Positions 30,073-36,626 of a stretch of DNA of 64,000 nucleotides are shown here, piece by piece. Positions within the stretch are counted from its first letter, which is position 1. Each line of letters starts with the position of its first letter. The notes under the pieces are model-generated. The model worked only from the letters and a program-made list of their open reading frames with translations, had not been told where the DNA came from and made no database searches. The stretch is from Candidatus Bathyarchaeia archaeon (lineage in GTDB: Archaea > Thermoproteota > Bathyarchaeia > 40CM-2-53-6). The position numbers and the translations under genes were made by a program. The stretch lies in contig JBEKFP010000002.1 in NCBI GenBank assembly GCA_050013255.1, positions 705,185-769,184 of the forward strand, in the 5' to 3' direction.

Positions 30073-30888
30073 ATGGTCAAGAAATGCCCATCATGCGGCT
30101 ACAATAACCGCGACGACGCAGCATTCTGTTCAAGTTGTGGATCCTCAGTCGGTGGCTCAGTGGGGCCAGCACTCAAACCAGTCCCTTCAGTCCGCGTTGT
30201 GACTCCCGTCAGCCCGGGCAACCCAATCAGGGTTCCGGCACCCGGCCAATGCTACTATCACCCCAACCTGCCCGCCGTCTACGTCTGTAACCGGTGTGGA
30301 AGAGCAATTTGCCGCGACGACTCCAAGGCCTACATGGACCTGGTACTCTGTCCGCAGTGTTACCAAGGCGTTGTACCAATGGTAGCAGCTCCGCAAATGC
30401 AACAACCACCTATGCAAATGCAACAACCTATGCAGATGCAGCAACCACCTATGCAAATGGGACCACCACCTATGCAAATGCAAATGGGACCACCGATGGG
30501 TGGCCCTCAGGCTTTCATGGCGCCGATGCCACAATACTATCAACCGTCCCCGCCAAGAGCGCTATGGGGATTCATACTAGCAATGATTGCAGGAATCCTC
30601 GTGATCCTTAACGCAGCAGCTTTGCTCTCACCAAGTTTCTACAGCTTATGGACCGGCATCTTCTTCTGGTTGCCAGCTGTTGGCCCCCCGAGCCTAACGT
30701 TCGCGATAGGCGCGATTATCGGGCTCATACTGGTAATCGGATCGATACTAATGCTGCTAGGATTCGGTACAATTGGAAGCATCGTAGTCTTTCCGTTGGC
30801 GGTCCTGAGCCTGTTGATCGGCGGAGGGTTTGTGGCCGGATTCGTTTTGGGCGTGCTGGGCGGAATACTCGGCATGCTCGGACGCTAG
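30073..30888 (+). CDS. Zinc-ribbon + B-box-type zinc finger + P/Q/M-rich linker + C-terminal membrane domain protein
   Basis: CPSC..FCSSC; CYYHP..AVYVCNRCGRAIC...LCPQC; QQPPMQM repeats; about 4 Gly-rich TMs; GGAGG SD upstream. Confidence 0.85.
   Translation: MVKKCPSCGYNNRDDAAFCSSCGSSVGGSVGPALKPVPSVRVVTPVSPGNPIRVPAPGQCYYHPNLPAVYVCNRCGRAICRDDSKAYMDLVLCPQCYQGVVPMVAAPQMQQPPMQMQQPMQMQQPPMQMGPPPMQMQMGPPMGGPQAFMAPMPQYYQPSPPRALWGFILAMIAGILVILNAAALLSPSFYSLWTGIFFWLPAVGPPSLTFAIGAIIGLILVIGSILMLLGFGTIGSIVVFPLAVLSLLIGGGFVAGFVLGVLGGILGMLGR
30391..30500 (+). repeat. Imperfect coding tandem repeat (CAACCACCTATGCAAATG-like units) encoding a Q/P/M linker
   Basis: About 5 units of 15-21 nt visible in the sequence. 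Confidence 0.8.
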
Positions 30889-30943: not shown

Positions 30944-32215
30944 TTGTCCTACGTGAGCATAGGGAAGCCTGTTAACGAAAAGATAGTGCACGCTGCGCGT
31001 AACAACAAAAATGAGATCGTCGGCCTGCTATTAGGAAGACTTGAAGGTAATACGCTAATAATAGAAAACTCAATTACCGGTGAATCCTCAGCCGCGCCGC
31101 ACAGGGTAAGCCTCTCTTCGAACGCTCTGGCGAAAATCGCGGACGGGCTTGTGACTGGGCTAATAAAAGGGAACATTGTGGGTTGGTACCATTCACATAC
31201 CTTGGGCGGACTTTTCTTCTCTGAAACAGACATCGAGACTCAAAGAACCCTTCAGCAATTCTCGAAACTGATTGTGGGAATGGTCGTGGACACATTGACC
31301 GGGGAAGTTGGGTTCTTTCGCGTGGACTCTCGGACAGGTGAGGCCGTACGTTTACCCGCTGAGAGGATCAGTGTCTTTTCCGGAGTTTATGAAGCGATTC
31401 CCCAAGAAACGATTGCTCCCCGCATGAGTGTACCAACGCTGGAAGTAGGGAGTGCAACTCCATCAAGGATGCCTCGAACACTCGGCGTTTTCGGGGCCGT
31501 GGGTCCCGTCATTTATCTTTCAGCCCTGTTGCTTGGCGGGTTTCTGTGGCCCGGCTACTCACAATACCGCGATACAGTTAGCACTCTCACTTCGGCAAGT
31601 TCACCCAATCAAGTCAGAGAGGTAATGCTTCTCCTCTTCGGGCTCTACAATGTCTGCGTAATCCTCTTGGCGGTCGGCCTCTACTACGGAATCGAGGGCG
31701 GGCACCTCTGGGGACCAGTGTCGCTTTTGGGCACGGGCGCCTTAGGCCTAGTCCTGTTTCTGTTTCCAGAGGACTATCCCCAAGGGTTTCCTGTTACGAT
31801 AACGGGCACCTTCCACATTGTGCTTGCCGGAGTCATCACCTTCCTCTCGCTGACCGCAATGGCATTCTTTTGGCGTCATTTCCGCCCCGACCCACACTGG
31901 AAGAATTACGTCCATTTCAGCATCGCAATGCTGCCGATCTCGACCGCCCTTGGTGTGTTTGTAGTAATCTCGATTTCCGCTCCGTACCTAGGACTTGCCG
32001 AACGTTTGTCGATTGGTTCAATCTTGTTCTGGATGGAGGCTGTCTCAATTAGACTTATCCTTCCCAGAAGGAAAGGCAACACGTCAACCAACCCAGCTGT
32101 GTTAGCCGCAGGCCTAGAGTTGCGTTCAAATGTCGGGGCATCTCAGCAAGCGATATATCCCGAAAGTAATCAGGGCGGCTGGGACCGCATTTTTCCATTC
32201 GGTCCCCCCTCATAG
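30944..32215 (+). CDS. Rpn11-like JAMM/MPN+ metalloprotease fused to a DUF998-like multi-pass membrane domain
   Basis: NEIVGLLLG...IVGWYHSH-x7-S-x2-D (FSETDIETQ); C-terminal about 6 TMs with PGYS..DTVS.L and GLAERL. Confidence 0.88.
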   Translation: MSYVSIGKPVNEKIVHAARNNKNEIVGLLLGRLEGNTLIIENSITGESSAAPHRVSLSSNALAKIADGLVTGLIKGNIVGWYHSHTLGGLFFSETDIETQRTLQQFSKLIVGMVVDTLTGEVGFFRVDSRTGEAVRLPAERISVFSGVYEAIPQETIAPRMSVPTLEVGSATPSRMPRTLGVFGAVGPVIYLSALLLGGFLWPGYSQYRDTVSTLTSASSPNQVREVMLLLFGLYNVCVILLAVGLYYGIEGGHLWGPVSLLGTGALGLVLFLFPEDYPQGFPVTITGTFHIVLAGVITFLSLTAMAFFWRHFRPDPHWKNYVHFSIAMLPISTALGVFVVISISAPYLGLAERLSIGSILFWMEAVSIRLILPRRKGNTSTNPAVLAAGLELRSNVGASQQAIYPESNQGGWDRIFPFGPPS

Positions 32216-32255
32216 TAAGATAGTTTAAGCACATCTGTGAAAATGAAAGGTCAGC

Positions 32256-32522
32256 ATGAGTGGAGGTGAAACGTCGCAAATGAAACTTTTTGTTCAAGCG
32301 CCTATTGGCCCTCAGACAGGCCTTGCGGAGATCGATGTTATTCCAGACCACACGGTTGCGGAGATAAAGCAACAGGTCTGCCAATCCTTCAACGTTGACC
32401 CAAGTACTGTGGCTCTCATGTATGGTGGCGCAATACTGGACGAGAGCACGACCGTTGCAAGGTTAGGCATTCCAGAGAATTCTCAGCTTGCACTCATGCC
32501 ATACAATATCATCGGCGGGTAG
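32256..32522 (+). CDS. Eukaryote-like ubiquitin
   Basis: MKLFVQ...DHTVAEIKQQV...LMYGGAILDESTTVARLGIPENSQL pattern matches the Ub beta-grasp; ends in GG-stop. Confidence 0.92.
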   Translation: MSGGETSQMKLFVQAPIGPQTGLAEIDVIPDHTVAEIKQQVCQSFNVDPSTVALMYGGAILDESTTVARLGIPENSQLALMPYNIIGG

Positions 32523-32533
32523 TCTGACTAGCA

Positions 32534-33130
32534 ATGGATGTTCCACTCCTGCTCAAGGAGAAGAACCTGCTCAACCACCAATTCCCAACAGTCACCGCAA
32601 TGAACGATCCTCCAACCCAATTCGAAGGCCTGATCCGCTGCGAAAAGGGGGAGGTCATGAAGCTATCGGAGAAGGGAGTCTGGCCCTTCACTGATTACAC
32701 CAACTGGCACCGGTTCAGACTTGACATTCCCCCAGAATACCCGTTGAAACCACCCGTGGCGACTTGGCTCACGGAAATTTCACACCCAAACATAGTACCG
32801 AAAATCCCGAATGCTGTATGCGTTTCAATACTCGGAGAAAAATGGGACCCCAGACTGAAACTCATTTCGGTCGTAAATGCGTTACATTACCTGCTAACGG
32901 ATCCGAACCCTCAGAGCGTGTTCGACAATCCCCGCGCCCTCAAAGCGGCAAACGTATGCCGCTCCTATGGATTCCCCAAAATGACAAAAGTCAAACCGAA
33001 AAGTAAGGAAACCGACGACATCGTCCGATTCAACGTGGTGCCTGTGCCAGAAACGAGGAATGCGGCTTCAGAGGCTGGGGATATCGTTAGGTTCGACCTT
33101 TCTGGACGGGGACATCGAGCGTCTTCTTGA
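32534..33130 (+). CDS. Ubiquitin-conjugating enzyme E2 (UBC fold)
   Basis: FRLDIPPEYPLKPP...HPNI...VCVSIL..KWDP...LLTDPNP; HPN motif and catalytic Cys intact. Confidence 0.95.
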   Translation: MDVPLLLKEKNLLNHQFPTVTAMNDPPTQFEGLIRCEKGEVMKLSEKGVWPFTDYTNWHRFRLDIPPEYPLKPPVATWLTEISHPNIVPKIPNAVCVSILGEKWDPRLKLISVVNALHYLLTDPNPQSVFDNPRALKAANVCRSYGFPKMTKVKPKSKETDDIVRFNVVPVPETRNAASEAGDIVRFDLSGRGHRASS

Positions 33131-34371
33131 TGCGCGTGAATGCTTCCCTCCCTTCCTACAAGCAAATAGAAGTGGAGCTGAACCCCAACAAGACGGCGAG
33201 AGACCTTAAAGGAATAATTTGCAAAAAACTAGGGATCGAACCTGAACTCACCAGACTACTAGCCCACGGGAAACCGCTACCGGATCATACACGTCTCTCG
33301 AGAATTAAGGAAACGGTGACCATTGACTACCTGTGGGCGCGACACTTGCTCCTCTGGGGCCTGGATGGCCAAAGAAGGATAAGAGATTCATCGGTGCTCC
33401 TCGCAGGCGCCGGCGCCATTGGCAACGAGGTAGCCAAGAACCTAGCTATGCTAGGTGTCGGGCGAATTATCATCGTAGATAGGGACACCGTGGAAATGTC
33501 TAATGTTAGCCGCATGGTCTTCTTCGAAAAAAGCGACTTGGGAAAGAACAAGGCTGAAGTCCTTGCAAGGAAAATCCACAGGAAATATCCCTTCGTCCAA
33601 ACGATCGCCTTCCGTGGCGCCCTTGAACGATTGCCACTGAAATTCTATTTGGATTCAAACGTGATAGTGTGCGGCCTCGACAACGTCGTTTCGCGAATCT
33701 TCCTAACCCAGATCTGCAGAAAATACTCTGTCCCGTTGGTTGATGGCGGAATCACGGGGATGAACGGCAGAATCCACGTATACCTCCCCCCCAACGATGC
33801 CTGCCCTGTATGCATGTTTCCGCCCAACCAATACTCGAAAATCGTTGGTTTGCGAAACCCGTGTGACGCCCCGTTGGAGCAGGAAGCCGTCCCATCCTTT
33901 TCGACAACAATCTCACTGGTCTCATCAATACTTGCCCAAGAAACGATCAAGCTGATCATTGGAATGGAAGAATACCGATCCAATGCAAGATGGCCAGAAA
34001 GTAGCGGCCAGCCACTAAGGTCAGTTCTGTTCTTGGATTTGAGAAATAATCGGTACACTCCGATGGATTTGAAGCGAGGCGAGAAATGCCTCGTATGCGG
34101 AAAGGAGGGGACGACCAGGGAACCTGCCCAACGGGGCGACCTAATGATCTCCACGGTCAGTCGTTCAAAGGGGAATTTGGCTGAAAACATTCGTCGCCAC
34201 GCCAAAATCGATGGCAAAGTGCTGCGCATACTCTTAGAAACGTCTGAGGGAACAAGGTTGTTGGATGGGCATTCGAAGCGGGGAAAGAGTGTGGGCCGAG
34301 GTGACTATCTCAGGGTTCTTGTTGACGGCAAAGACGAGGAGTTTCATGAATCAATTCTAAGGTTGACGTAG
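33127..34371 (+). CDS. Ubiquitin-activating enzyme E1 (ThiF/MoeB fold) with an N-terminal ubiquitin-like domain
   Basis: N-terminal Ubl (KTARDLKGIICKKLGIEPELTRLLAHGKPLPD); RHLLLWG, GAGAIGNEVAKNL, DRDTVEMSNVSR, GLDN, CPVC, NPC (candidate catalytic Cys), CLVC. Confidence 0.93.
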   Translation: MMRVNASLPSYKQIEVELNPNKTARDLKGIICKKLGIEPELTRLLAHGKPLPDHTRLSRIKETVTIDYLWARHLLLWGLDGQRRIRDSSVLLAGAGAIGNEVAKNLAMLGVGRIIIVDRDTVEMSNVSRMVFFEKSDLGKNKAEVLARKIHRKYPFVQTIAFRGALERLPLKFYLDSNVIVCGLDNVVSRIFLTQICRKYSVPLVDGGITGMNGRIHVYLPPNDACPVCMFPPNQYSKIVGLRNPCDAPLEQEAVPSFSTTISLVSSILAQETIKLIIGMEEYRSNARWPESSGQPLRSVLFLDLRNNRYTPMDLKRGEKCLVCGKEGTTREPAQRGDLMISTVSRSKGNLAENIRRHAKIDGKVLRILLETSEGTRLLDGHSKRGKSVGRGDYLRVLVDGKDEEFHESILRLT

Positions 34372-34512: not shown

Positions 34513-34929
34513 ATGCGTGGTTCAAAGATGCCAATGTGTCAGGCCTGTGGCAAAGCCAACTCGGATGATGCAAGGTACTGTTTCAGCTGCGGCGTGTCGC
34601 TTGTCAATATACCACCTGTCAAAGTTGATGTGAAGTCACCTCTGACAGCTTCCATGAAGCCAACCCCCGCAGCTCCTATGTCCCCATTAACCTATGCTCC
34701 GAGGCAATTGCAGAGGCAAGGAAGCTGCTACTATCACTCCGAGTTGCCATCAGCATTCGTCTGCTCAAGATGTGGAAGGTCAATTTGTGCATCCTGTAAC
34801 AGACAATATGGAGTCCTAAGCCTGTGCACGGAATGTTACTGGGGATTGGCGCCGAAGCTGGGGTCTCAATCCGACCAATACGTGATGGGTGGCGAACAGC
34901 AAGCGCGTTCACCCTTCTCGCCTTTCTAG
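34513..34929 (+). CDS. Soluble zinc-ribbon + B-box-type zinc-finger protein (paralog of the 30073 N-terminus)
   Basis: CQACG..NSDDARYCFSCG; CYYH..AFVCSRCGRSICASC...LCTEC. Confidence 0.85.
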   Translation: MRGSKMPMCQACGKANSDDARYCFSCGVSLVNIPPVKVDVKSPLTASMKPTPAAPMSPLTYAPRQLQRQGSCYYHSELPSAFVCSRCGRSICASCNRQYGVLSLCTECYWGLAPKLGSQSDQYVMGGEQQARSPFSPF

Positions 34930-36626
34930 GCTAAGCGACCCTGATTCTTTAGCCGACTCGTTATTGTCTTGAGTTCTTCAATAGGAATTCCGAGTTCCGC
35001 TGAGGCCGTGCTTAACGAGATTACGCCTTCATGCTTCACGATGTAATCGTATACCTTATCATCCAAAGGCGGTACCATGGGCGCTTCCATCGGAGCTCCG
35101 CACTTTTCACAGAATGTCCCCTTCGGAACAAGATTCCCACAGGTACTGCAAATCTGCATTCCAACCGGGGCGGTGGGCGCGCCTACTGAAGCAGGAGGAT
35201 TAAGCATTGGTCGCGCACGGTCGAACGCACCGCGTCTGCGTGCAAGAACGAACGCCACCGCGACGACCACGACCGCGATTCCGCCACCACCAAAGAGTTC
35301 GACAAGCGGAAGATAGTCAAAGCTCCACTCAGCTTGGACAACGTACGGTCTGTCCACAGTCAGACTCCATGAATGATCAGTCTTCGTGAGGACCCCTGAC
35401 GAGGGCTCGAGCTGCCAACCAGTTAGAGTGTATGAAATAGGCCAAGTTTGAGAACTAGTAGTGGCAGTGATATTTGCTGTGGACCCGCGGTCATACCACC
35501 CTGACCCTGCAACCGAACCCTGCGAAGATCGCACATCCACATAATACTGGGTCTTGTACGAGATGGTGATTGTACGCGGCTGATCCATGACCACTGTGTA
35601 GGACGGGTTTGAAGAAGTTGAATTATTGTCGGTCCAACCGATGAAGCTAAGGCGCTCGACGGAGCTCAATTTGACAGTTGATGGAGCTGGGCCAAGCTGG
35701 ACATTTGAGTTGACATCATACCAGCCTGCATGAGATTCGTTATATCCTGAGGAAATGCTCACTGGGTTGTATTGAACGGCAAGCAAGTATTGAGCGAGAA
35801 AATTCGCACTGACTGTCTGTGGCCGGTCCATTAGGACCCGCCCAGTCGTTGATTGACCCGAGTAGTCTCCGCTCCAGTGTTCAAACATAAGACGCGTATT
35901 GTCACTGGCCGGCAGAACTGCAGCAGCGGAGAAGGTCGCTTCGCTCCCCGAATCATACCAACCAGAGCCGGAGAGGCCCGAAACGTTGGCGGGGTTGGAC
36001 ACCACTGTCAAAAGGAATTGCGTCTTCCAGTTCGCTATGGCGGTCTTCGGCCCAGTCATGAATATTTGCGCCGTAGTCAAACTAGTTCCAGACGCGTCTC
36101 CTGACCATCCTGTGAAGACTTCTCGTGTTCCTTGACCCTGATCGACATTCGCGTCATTCACGGTCGCTTGCACCGCCGTGTCAGATTCATACCACCCTTG
36201 ACCGGTCGAGGTGCTGTAAGATGTTTTTACGGTGAGATAGTATTGCGCTGTGTAAGTGAAAATGTGGCTGCCGGCCGCGGTGAAGCTCCATGACGCGTCC
36301 TGCTCATAGAAACGCGTGCCGTTAGCTAAGATGCTATTCGGGACGTAAGAATCTACTGTGATTATGTGGCCGGTGTTTGGAACGGAGAACGTTAAGGAAA
36401 GGGTCTGGCCCCCGTTAATGGTTGTGTTGAAGGTCCCATCAACGTAGAGGTTAGTGCTAACGGTTGATGGAAGGCCTGCTATGCTAACTGAAACCGAGTA
36501 AGAGAGCTGGGCTCCGACATATGGTGTGATAAGACCAGCTACGACAAGGCAAAACGCGAGCGTTAACAATGGCCGCGCGGAAAGATGCAACCCCGGTCTT
36601 CTCGTCTCGTGAGTTCGAAGCCCCAT
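34926..36626 (-). CDS. Single-pass surface protein: extracellular beta-repeat domains, TM, cytoplasmic double zinc ribbon and wHTH (PCI-like) tail
   Basis: Signal peptide; four QY.L.V...G.GWYD...GW...MD.P repeats; TM then RRRG; CSTC/CEKC; KVYDYIVKHEGVISLSTASAELGI. Confidence 0.8.
   Translation of the reverse strand: MGLRTHETRRPGLHLSARPLLTLAFCLVVAGLITPYVGAQLSYSVSVSIAGLPSTVSTNLYVDGTFNTTINGGQTLSLTFSVPNTGHIITVDSYVPNSILANGTRFYEQDASWSFTAAGSHIFTYTAQYYLTVKTSYSTSTGQGWYESDTAVQATVNDANVDQGQGTREVFTGWSGDASGTSLTTAQIFMTGPKTAIANWKTQFLLTVVSNPANVSGLSGSGWYDSGSEATFSAAAVLPASDNTRLMFEHWSGDYSGQSTTGRVLMDRPQTVSANFLAQYLLAVQYNPVSISSGYNESHAGWYDVNSNVQLGPAPSTVKLSSVERLSFIGWTDNNSTSSNPSYTVVMDQPRTITISYKTQYYVDVRSSQGSVAGSGWYDRGSTANITATTSSQTWPISYTLTGWQLEPSSGVLTKTDHSWSLTVDRPYVVQAEWSFDYLPLVELFGGGGIAVVVVAVAFVLARRRGAFDRARPMLNPPASVGAPTAPVGMQICSTCGNLVPKGTFCEKCGAPMEAPMVPPLDDKVYDYIVKHEGVISLSTASAELGIPIEELKTITSRLKNQGRLA

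Follow-up and report, generated by a model that had tools for sequence, protein, structure and literature searches.

We focus on an open reading frame (ORF) that joins a JAMM-type deubiquitylase domain to a DUF998 membrane domain in the ubiquitin operon of a Candidatus Bathyarchaeia archaeon (assembly GCA_050013255.1). It lies in a stretch of 64,000 nucleotides from contig JBEKFP010000002.1 (positions 705,185 to 769,184 of the forward strand), which is the whole of the DNA analyzed here and is referred to as the window. The fusion is a genuine, conserved single protein. With good though not complete confidence we read it as a membrane-tethered cytoplasmic deubiquitylase of the type of CsRpn11, the enzyme of Caldiarchaeum subterraneum, with an exchangeable module behind the JAMM domain and with DUF998 as an anchor that keeps an outer-face function of its own. 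According to this reading, one polypeptide would carry a cytoplasmic Zn-dependent JAMM isopeptidase on a flexible leash of ~25 residues, which joins it to a six-helix DUF998 domain lying in the cell membrane with both termini inside (N-in/C-in). The enzyme would be a dedicated deubiquitylase for the mature ubiquitin of its own operon, and its task would be deconjugation, removing or recycling ubiquitin from targets located at the membrane or close to it, auto-modified E1 and E2 among them. Membrane location would be a conserved, selected property of the JAMM clade, and the cassette behind the JAMM domain would be exchangeable: most relatives have a single transmembrane (TM) helix and an Ig/PKD-like ectodomain there, whereas this sub-lineage has DUF998. 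DUF998 would have been captured from a standalone Bathyarchaeia gene and most likely keeps its own activity while anchoring, probably a lipid- or envelope-related one, because its own conserved site is kept in the outer half of the membrane.

The ORF (Table 1) starts at TTG 30944 or, as in some homologs, at GTG 30953. It contains the complete JAMM/MPN+ motif (E...HSH-x7-S-x2-D, within GWYHSH), and all catalytic residues can be read from the DNA: E24 is gag (31013-31015), H83-S-H85 is cat tca cat (31190-31198), S93 is tct (31220-31222), and D96 is gac (31229-31231). A hydropathy scan finds six TM segments in the same frame, and thus the intact motif in frame with about six TM helices noted in a preliminary description of the window is confirmed. 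Pfam recognizes JAB (PF01398) at residues 10-106 with 44.9 bits (cut-off 22.5) and Prok-JAB with 33.4 bits (cut-off 25). Residues 186-368 match DUF998 (PF06197) with 68.3 bits (cut-off 30) over profile positions 2-182 of 184, and this match is confirmed on the genome. The last ~40 residues of the C-terminal tail are present only in the closest homologs (forms of 419-423 aa). An internal start giving a separate DUF998 protein was considered and rejected, as homologs do not conserve the in-frame Met near residue 175.

The solved relatives closest in sequence to the JAMM domain (phmmer against the PDB) are CsRpn11 (E 4e-17), CSN5 (5e-12), Rpn11 (2e-7), and then BRCC36. The alignment with CsRpn11 extends over 106 residues without a gap and places E24, H83-S-H85, S93, and D96 on the same residues. 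An AlphaFold2 model of the whole protein, built on an alignment of 102 sequences, has a mean predicted local distance difference test (pLDDT) of 87.9 and a predicted template modeling score (pTM) of 0.61, with pLDDT >90 in the JAMM part. Foldseek superimposes this part on 6fnn_A (CsRpn11:ubiquitin) with a template modeling score of 0.82 and a root-mean-square deviation of 2.2 over 149 residues at 35% identity. The domain is predicted to be a Zn-dependent isopeptidase of the CsRpn11/CSN5/Rpn11 type. The close resemblance to eukaryotic Rpn11 proposed earlier needs one correction, since by sequence CsRpn11 and then CSN5 come before Rpn11. The lid-type architecture of Rpn11 and CSN5 is absent, since the protein continues after residue ~150 with a disordered linker and six TM helices and has no assembly helices. 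Two further small JAB frames in the genome (G000:C3:69245-69556, minus strand, and G000:C2:189142-189411, plus strand; 145 and 141 aa) are located away from the ubiquitin operon and probably encode SAMP/MoaD-type JAMMs.

The preliminary description had allowed that homologs might always be split, or that the junction might be an assembly chimera. Neither is the case. A search of 5.8 billion proteins retrieves ~20 clusters with the fused JAB-DUF998 architecture at 58-93% identity. They originate from independent JGI, ENA, NCBI, and Logan assemblies, with contigs including ones of 2.36 Mb, 698 kb, and 250 kb and with the same operon synteny. The named fused homologs are assigned to Candidatus Bathyarchaeia by NCBI, and fused proteins are labeled "DUF998 domain-containing protein" or "proteasome lid subunit RPN8/RPN11" in the databases; the latter, a JGI label, is a domain-level name only. 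The window itself lies well inside contig C2 of a 2.46-Mb genome in three contigs. An artifact, in which the ORF joins two genes through a chimeric assembly or a sequencing frameshift, could appeal to the entries in which JAB and DUF998 are adjacent separate ORFs (P0085+P0231; P0229 with an upstream JAB). However, all four seemingly split entries (these two, P0081, and P0230) occupy the same operon slot and stand either at a contig start or on contigs where E1, the Zn-ribbon gene, or other genes such as MTTB are also broken, and their ORFs overlap by 1-4 nt as in frameshift errors. Three "standalone" DUF998 entries from split loci fall within the fused clade of the DUF998 tree on very short branches, and no credible natural split form of JAMM/DUF998 was found among the homologs examined. 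Codon-level purifying selection acts on both halves in one frame, and the true standalone sister clade of DUF998 is located elsewhere in genomes. The artifact is already contradicted by these data and can be regarded as excluded for practical purposes. In the ENA assemblies ERZ25039512 and ERZ25039515 (loci L013, L014, and L015), many adjacent overlapping half-genes are found (E1, Zn-ribbon protein, MTTB, JAB/DUF998), which are typical of indel errors and thus give rise to artificial "standalone" JAB and DUF998 database entries.

The AlphaFold2 model comprises two confidently predicted domains, and residues 176-372 form six long helices. The same six helices are obtained when DUF998 is modeled alone (pLDDT 92.4, pTM 0.88), and DUF998 clusters of the ESM Atlas match this model with template modeling scores of 0.86 and 0.91. 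The linker has a pLDDT <50 at residues 157-171 and a basic stretch ahead of TM1. Given this disorder and the pTM of the whole-protein model, no fixed contact between JAMM and DUF998 is predicted. Averaged over 21 fused homologs, the number of K+R on the predicted inner side is 2.9 ahead of TM1, 1.4 and 1.6 in loops 2-3 and 4-5, respectively, and 1.9 behind TM6, while the predicted outer loops have 0.8, 0, and 0. This positive-inside pattern suggests an N-in/C-in topology and thus a JAMM domain that is tethered to the membrane in the cytoplasm, together with ubiquitin, E1, and E2, in line with the tethering proposed in the preliminary description. A juxtamembrane motif, P-T-(P/V/L)-x-(V/I)-E-V-(R/K), is conserved in the linkers of DUF998-type enzymes and of a 510-aa type described below, and could be a docking motif despite the predicted disorder.

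The conserved polar motifs of DUF998 are predicted to lie on the outer side of the membrane. Loop 1-2 carries Y-S...T-V-S-T-L-x-S...P-N-Q and loop 3-4 carries F-P-Q-D-x-P, H291 sits where TM4 ends on the outer side, and Y-x-G-L-A-E-R is found at loop 5-6. Every position that is conserved to >=80% in standalone DUF998 relatives is kept in the fused proteins, including the family residues Y, S-x-L, P, H, W, G, and W (invariant and near-invariant columns). In the deeper comparisons, the ratio of nonsynonymous to synonymous divergence (dN/dS, Nei-Gojobori) is 0.14-0.15 for DUF998, 0.14 for JAMM, and ~0.12 for E1/E2. Because the family-conserved residues are kept and purifying selection acts on the domain, the fused DUF998 is not a decaying anchor. 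Structure searches returned no informative solved relative of DUF998 (best Foldseek match in the PDB at E 0.16). VIA-align matches, namely a de novo six-helix barrel at Z 10.1 followed by G-protein-coupled receptors and rhodopsins, were set aside as generic helical bundles without a functional lead. DUF998 has been placed in the Frag1/DRAM/Sfk1 clan (by Pfam, as cited in PMC13370385), and no structures exist for the family according to the same paper. Sulfolobus acidocaldarius also has a member of the family. In our searches for a Frag1-type likeness, the domain has no Frag1-family Pfam match at E <=0.1, and the Atlas search gave DUF998 clusters only. A DUF998 clone was once recovered in a metagenomic esterase selection, with no mechanism given (PMC6302743). 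The only other DUF998 of the genome (L006 1459-2853, minus strand, corresponding to G000:C1 about 886107-887501) is likewise part of a fusion, a protein of 464 aa with an N-terminal Zn-ribbon, a Pro-rich linker, four TM helices (weak DUF2127 match), and DUF998. It was tried as a paralog of the first gene of the operon; only the Zn-ribbon aligns (E 6e-4), and it was therefore rejected as a second link between ubiquitin and DUF998.

Membrane anchoring is not restricted to the DUF998 forms. An exhaustive HMMER search with the JAMM domain yields 29 relatives at <1e-30 and 92 at <1e-10. In nearly all relatives to ~1e-20, the catalytic domain and a Pro-rich linker lead directly into a hydrophobic helix at residues ~170-220, and this helix is followed by 300-550 further residues. 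The tails recognized by Pfam are PKD, Big, and Ig-like surface domains, and one type has a long coiled coil. A type of 510 aa is found in exactly the same operon slot, including in two species of the same GTDB genus as the source genome. In the JAMM tree, the DUF998 forms make up one clade (Shimodaira-Hasegawa-like approximate likelihood ratio test, SH-aLRT, 91) nested in a starred clade (99) that otherwise consists of forms with a TM helix and an ectodomain. In the DUF998 tree, the domains from fusion proteins group in a starred clade (97), and its sister group consists of standalone Bathyarchaeia DUF998 proteins of ~205 aa that are 48-59% identical. The neighborhoods of these standalone genes are variable and unrelated, and nothing linked to ubiquitin was found in those examined. 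As almost every close JAMM relative has a TM helix after the catalytic domain, the simplest history suggested by the sequences is that anchoring is ancestral and DUF998 a derived replacement. A membrane-anchored JAMM would have swapped its TM helix and ectodomain for a resident standalone Bathyarchaeia DUF998 gene.

A second exchange is apparent in a close relative (L003/L004, protein P0023). Identities between the window and L003/L004 are 95% for acyl-CoA dehydrogenase, 93% for the Zn-ribbon protein, 99% for ubiquitin, 93% for E2, and 92% for E1. Between the window protein and P0023, the JAMM domain is 81-85% identical and the DUF998 part 22-23%. In a blastn comparison with L004, positions 30944-31384 match at 84% and 32212-32600 at 95%, with no homology in 31385-32211, so that homology resumes four bases before the end of the stop codon. 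The exchanged tract measures 827 bp in the window and 809 bp in the relative. As judged from this alignment, linker and membrane module have been exchanged cleanly and in frame. The incoming module of P0023 is a DUF998 again and has the family invariants; its nearest database relatives are only 29% identical. Its grouping with the other DUF998 of the source genome of the window was rejected as a long-branch pair, and a direct BLASTP comparison of the two is insignificant. The replacement is known from just one lineage, represented by two contigs that stem from two JGI samples. Within that single lineage, it is the strongest hint that a DUF998-type module may be favored over any other anchor in this sub-lineage. 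In the same pair of loci, synonymous divergence (dS) of the JAMM part (30944-31384 in the window, 4595-5035 in L004) is 0.61, and that of the flanking E1/E2 is about half of this, 0.31-0.35. As the JAMM value is about twice that of its neighbors, the recombination that swapped DUF998 may have brought in the JAMM part as well, from a more distant source.

Ubiquitin (with a GG end), E1, E2, and JAMM are encoded together, as in eukaryote-like archaeal ubiquitylation operons of the Caldiarchaeum type, and this synteny is conserved in eight further loci, identically so in L001, L003, and L004. At 60% identity the neighborhood is still unchanged, with acyl-CoA dehydrogenase, glyoxalase, Zn-ribbon membrane protein, JAB-DUF998, ubiquitin, E2, E1, and the convergent surface protein. 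The ubiquitin gene is the only free one in the genome. Its tail is NIIGG-stop in all nine loci translated (the window and eight homologous loci), which bears out the earlier statement that no maturation of a pro-ubiquitin is needed. Since ubiquitin is encoded in its mature form, deconjugation is likely the task of the JAMM enzyme, which would make it the "pure deconjugase" of the preliminary description. Across the loci compared (window, L001-L004, and L013-L016), ubiquitin is 91-99% identical, where E1 is 58-92% and JAMM 60-85% identical; judged by these sequences, the near-invariant ubiquitin is under a eukaryote-like extreme constraint on the modifier.

The earlier proposal that the fusion hints at a function of DUF998 is less well supported. 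The family signature under purifying selection and the replacement of one DUF998 by another speak for a domain that does more than anchor. The unrelated modules in orthologs, the lack of a predicted contact, and the position of the motifs on the outer face argue against a mechanism shared with the JAMM domain. DUF998 could be functionally coupled to deubiquitylation, with the lipid or envelope state controlling JAMM or with both domains sharing a membrane-embedded substrate, at the extreme ubiquitin on an amine-bearing lipid. We consider such a coupling unlikely. If tethering were all that mattered, an unrelated anchor would have sufficed for P0023, where the incoming DUF998 retains the invariants at 22% identity between flanking genes that are 92-95% identical. 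Moreover, purifying selection is the same on the fused DUF998 and on JAMM, the fused domain retains all family motifs, and the DUF998 protein DrmA is linked to lysinylated glycolipid levels within a family of the Frag1/DRAM/Sfk1 clan (PMC13370385). However, orthologous JAMMs in the same operon slot carry a TM helix with Ig/PKD-like or coiled-coil ectodomains instead, no interdomain contact is predicted by AlphaFold2, the conserved polar motifs of DUF998 lie in outer loops and helix ends across the membrane from JAMM, the standalone relatives lack ubiquitin-related neighbors, and the DUF998-for-DUF998 replacement comes from one lineage. A broader version, in which DUF998 is a working partner of the ubiquitin system and the Bathyarchaeia ubiquitin cycle takes place on the membrane, coupled to envelope-lipid handling, appears quite unlikely to us. 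DUF998 would then position or gate deubiquitylation, or both domains would work on a conjugate embedded in the membrane, possibly a ubiquitin-amine lipid. If true, it would provide the first mechanistic context for DUF998 and an archaeal membrane-bound ubiquitin pathway comparable to eukaryotic endoplasmic reticulum-associated degradation (ERAD), endosomal sorting complex required for transport (ESCRT), or Atg8-lipid cycles.

The architecture also resembles a receptor. An outside module, be it an Ig/PKD ectodomain or the outer face of DUF998, might sense an external cue and switch JAMM, amounting to one-component transmembrane ubiquitin signaling. Throughout the clade, a cytoplasmic enzyme is followed by a TM segment and a variable outside module, these modules diversify fast and are exchanged even within one genus, and the adjoining conserved surface protein also has a cytoplasmic Zn-ribbon. 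Against this, a long disordered linker is a poor conduit for conformational signaling, Pfam scans detect no dimerization or signaling domains (HAMP, PAS), and CsRpn11 is constitutively active alone (PMC5654768); we regard a receptor as improbable. The preferred reading of a tethered deubiquitylase with DUF998 as an anchor has points against it as well. The topology depends on the positive-inside rule and presupposes that a ubiquitin system requiring ATP is cytoplasmic. The node that unites the DUF998 forms in the JAMM tree has its support of 91 from a quick search and is not starred, and two of the dN/dS comparisons are saturated (dS >1). Finally, among 201 sampled species genomes of the class, only the source genome has the full-length fusion. 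The DUF998 form is thus confined to a narrow lineage, and it might be a neutral variant.

Table 1. Coordinates of the JAMM-DUF998 gene, its parts, and its neighbors in the window.
Feature	Position	Strand	Description and basis
JAMM-DUF998 ORF	30944..32215	+	423 aa plus stop, uninterrupted; Pfam, DNA reading
JAMM/MPN+ catalytic domain	30944..31393	+	residues 1-150; Pfam JAB, AlphaFold2, Foldseek, phmmer
Flexible Pro/Thr-rich linker	31394..31468	+	residues 151-175; low pLDDT, K/R enrichment
DUF998 six-helix membrane domain	31469..32059	+	residues 176-372; predicted N-in/C-in; Pfam PF06197, domain model
Cytoplasmic C-terminal tail (predicted)	32060..32212	+	residues 373-423; low model confidence
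Exchange cassette (linker plus DUF998 up to stop codon)	31385..32211	+	blastn against L004
Zn-ribbon membrane protein gene	30073..30888	+	cytoplasmic Zn-ribbon, weak B-box-like Cys cluster, P/Q/M-rich linker, C-terminal TM region
Ubiquitin	32256..32522	+	Pfam ubiquitin; ends NIIGG-stop
E2 (UQ_con)	32534..33130	+	Pfam
E1 (ThiF adenylation domain, N-terminal ubiquitin-like domain)	33127..34371	+	Pfam
Small soluble Zn-ribbon / weak B-box-like protein	34513..34929	+	Pfam
Convergent surface protein (InlB-B-repeat-like ectodomain, TM helix, cytoplasmic Zn-ribbon)	34926..36626	-	conserved beside operon

Besides the ubiquitin genes, the operon region contains several Zn-ribbon proteins (Table 1). The Zn-ribbon gene upstream of JAMM-DUF998 is conserved at the same position in L001-L004, L013, L017, and L018, and its membrane protein is a candidate adaptor or E3. 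The convergent surface protein is also found in L001, L002, L013, and L018. As the product of the upstream gene is membrane-bound and this surface protein has a cytoplasmic Zn-ribbon, the ubiquitin system as a whole looks membrane-centered. A search for a RING E3 (srfp) among the two flanking Cys-rich proteins gave Zn-ribbon matches, with B-box and Prok-RING below the cut-off (E 0.003-0.03), and for ESCRT components of the genome only a Snf7 match below the cut-off was obtained. The true start of ubiquitin is probably ATG 32280 (MKLF...), because only some gene calls include the upstream extension MSGGETSQ. Ahead of the operon, the intergenic space varies, with a LAGLIDADG-type gene in L001 (3724-4659), and L004 (4209-4595) has ~385 bp just ahead of the JAMM gene that are absent from the window. 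In a more distant lineage (Logan contig of P0078), a JAMM-TM-coiled-coil protein of 670 aa is followed by a 243-aa gene with ubiquitin and UQ_con (a ubiquitin-E2 fusion), a short ThiF E1, and a B-box-like protein.

Studied archaeal ubiquitin systems of the eukaryote-like kind comprise only the soluble Caldiarchaeum enzymes. In the literature searched, we found no paper combining Bathyarchaeota, ubiquitin, and JAMM, and none on a membrane-anchored archaeal JAMM or a JAB-DUF998 fusion. New here are the proposed origin of DUF998, both exchanges of the cassette, the analysis of selection, and the predicted placement of JAMM and the DUF998 motifs on opposite faces of the membrane. A whole Bathyarchaeia clade builds its predicted deubiquitylase and a Zn-finger partner into the membrane, and the outward module is swapped between close relatives. 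The exchangeable membrane module in relatives suggests that ubiquitin is used and removed at the cell membrane in an archaeon without endomembranes. The operon provides a simple setting in which to study the beginnings of membrane-linked ubiquitylation, and a second, independent context for the widespread and unexplained DUF998 family.

The closest known enzyme, CsRpn11 (PDB 6FJU, 6FJV, 6FNN, and 6FNO), shares the E/HSH/S/D metal site and is likewise part of an archaeal gene set of ubiquitin, E1, and E2. It is active alone as a deubiquitylase and as a pro-ubiquitin processing enzyme (PMC5654768, PMC6043591). CsRpn11 is small and soluble and also matures a pro-ubiquitin with a C-terminal extension, whereas ubiquitin is already mature here and the enzyme is predicted to be an integral membrane protein. 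Furthermore, the Caldiarchaeum-type operon has a small RING-finger E3 (srfp), while Zn-ribbon/B-box-like proteins without a RING recognized by Pfam are present here. Rpn11, CSN5, BRCC36, and AMSH/STAMBP share the MPN+ fold and the catalytic motif with the JAMM-DUF998 protein. These eukaryotic enzymes are soluble complex subunits that reach membranes via partners, and the C-terminal helices with which Rpn11 and CSN5 are positioned in their complexes are missing from the fusion protein. AMSH works at membranes, where it is recruited to ESCRT-III. To our knowledge, no eukaryotic JAMM deubiquitylase has a TM domain.

For DUF998, the reference is DrmA of Enterococcus faecalis, which is a PF06197 protein as well, likewise with six TM helices. 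Alone among DUF998 members it has a phenotype, in that it modulates Lys-Glc2-DAG levels (preprint, PMC13370385). DrmA differs in being standalone and bacterial and in having no link to ubiquitin, and its likeness to the DUF998 domain described here is one of family membership. Fusions of beta-lactamase and DUF998 in Gemmatimonadota (ESM Atlas cluster, ~653 aa; template modeling score 0.85 over DUF998) likewise join the domain to a hydrolase, in this case a bacterial serine hydrolase with no known ubiquitin context, and this architecture might bear on the role of the family. The JAMM-TM-ectodomain proteins of other Bathyarchaeia (500-760 aa; for example P0027, P0054, and P0094) have an orthologous JAMM (55-70% identical) and occupy the same operon position, and their juxtamembrane linker is also the same Pro-rich one. 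They differ in what follows this linker: in place of DUF998 they have one TM helix and then PKD/Big/Ig-like or unannotated beta-rich surface domains, or, in P0078, a coiled coil.

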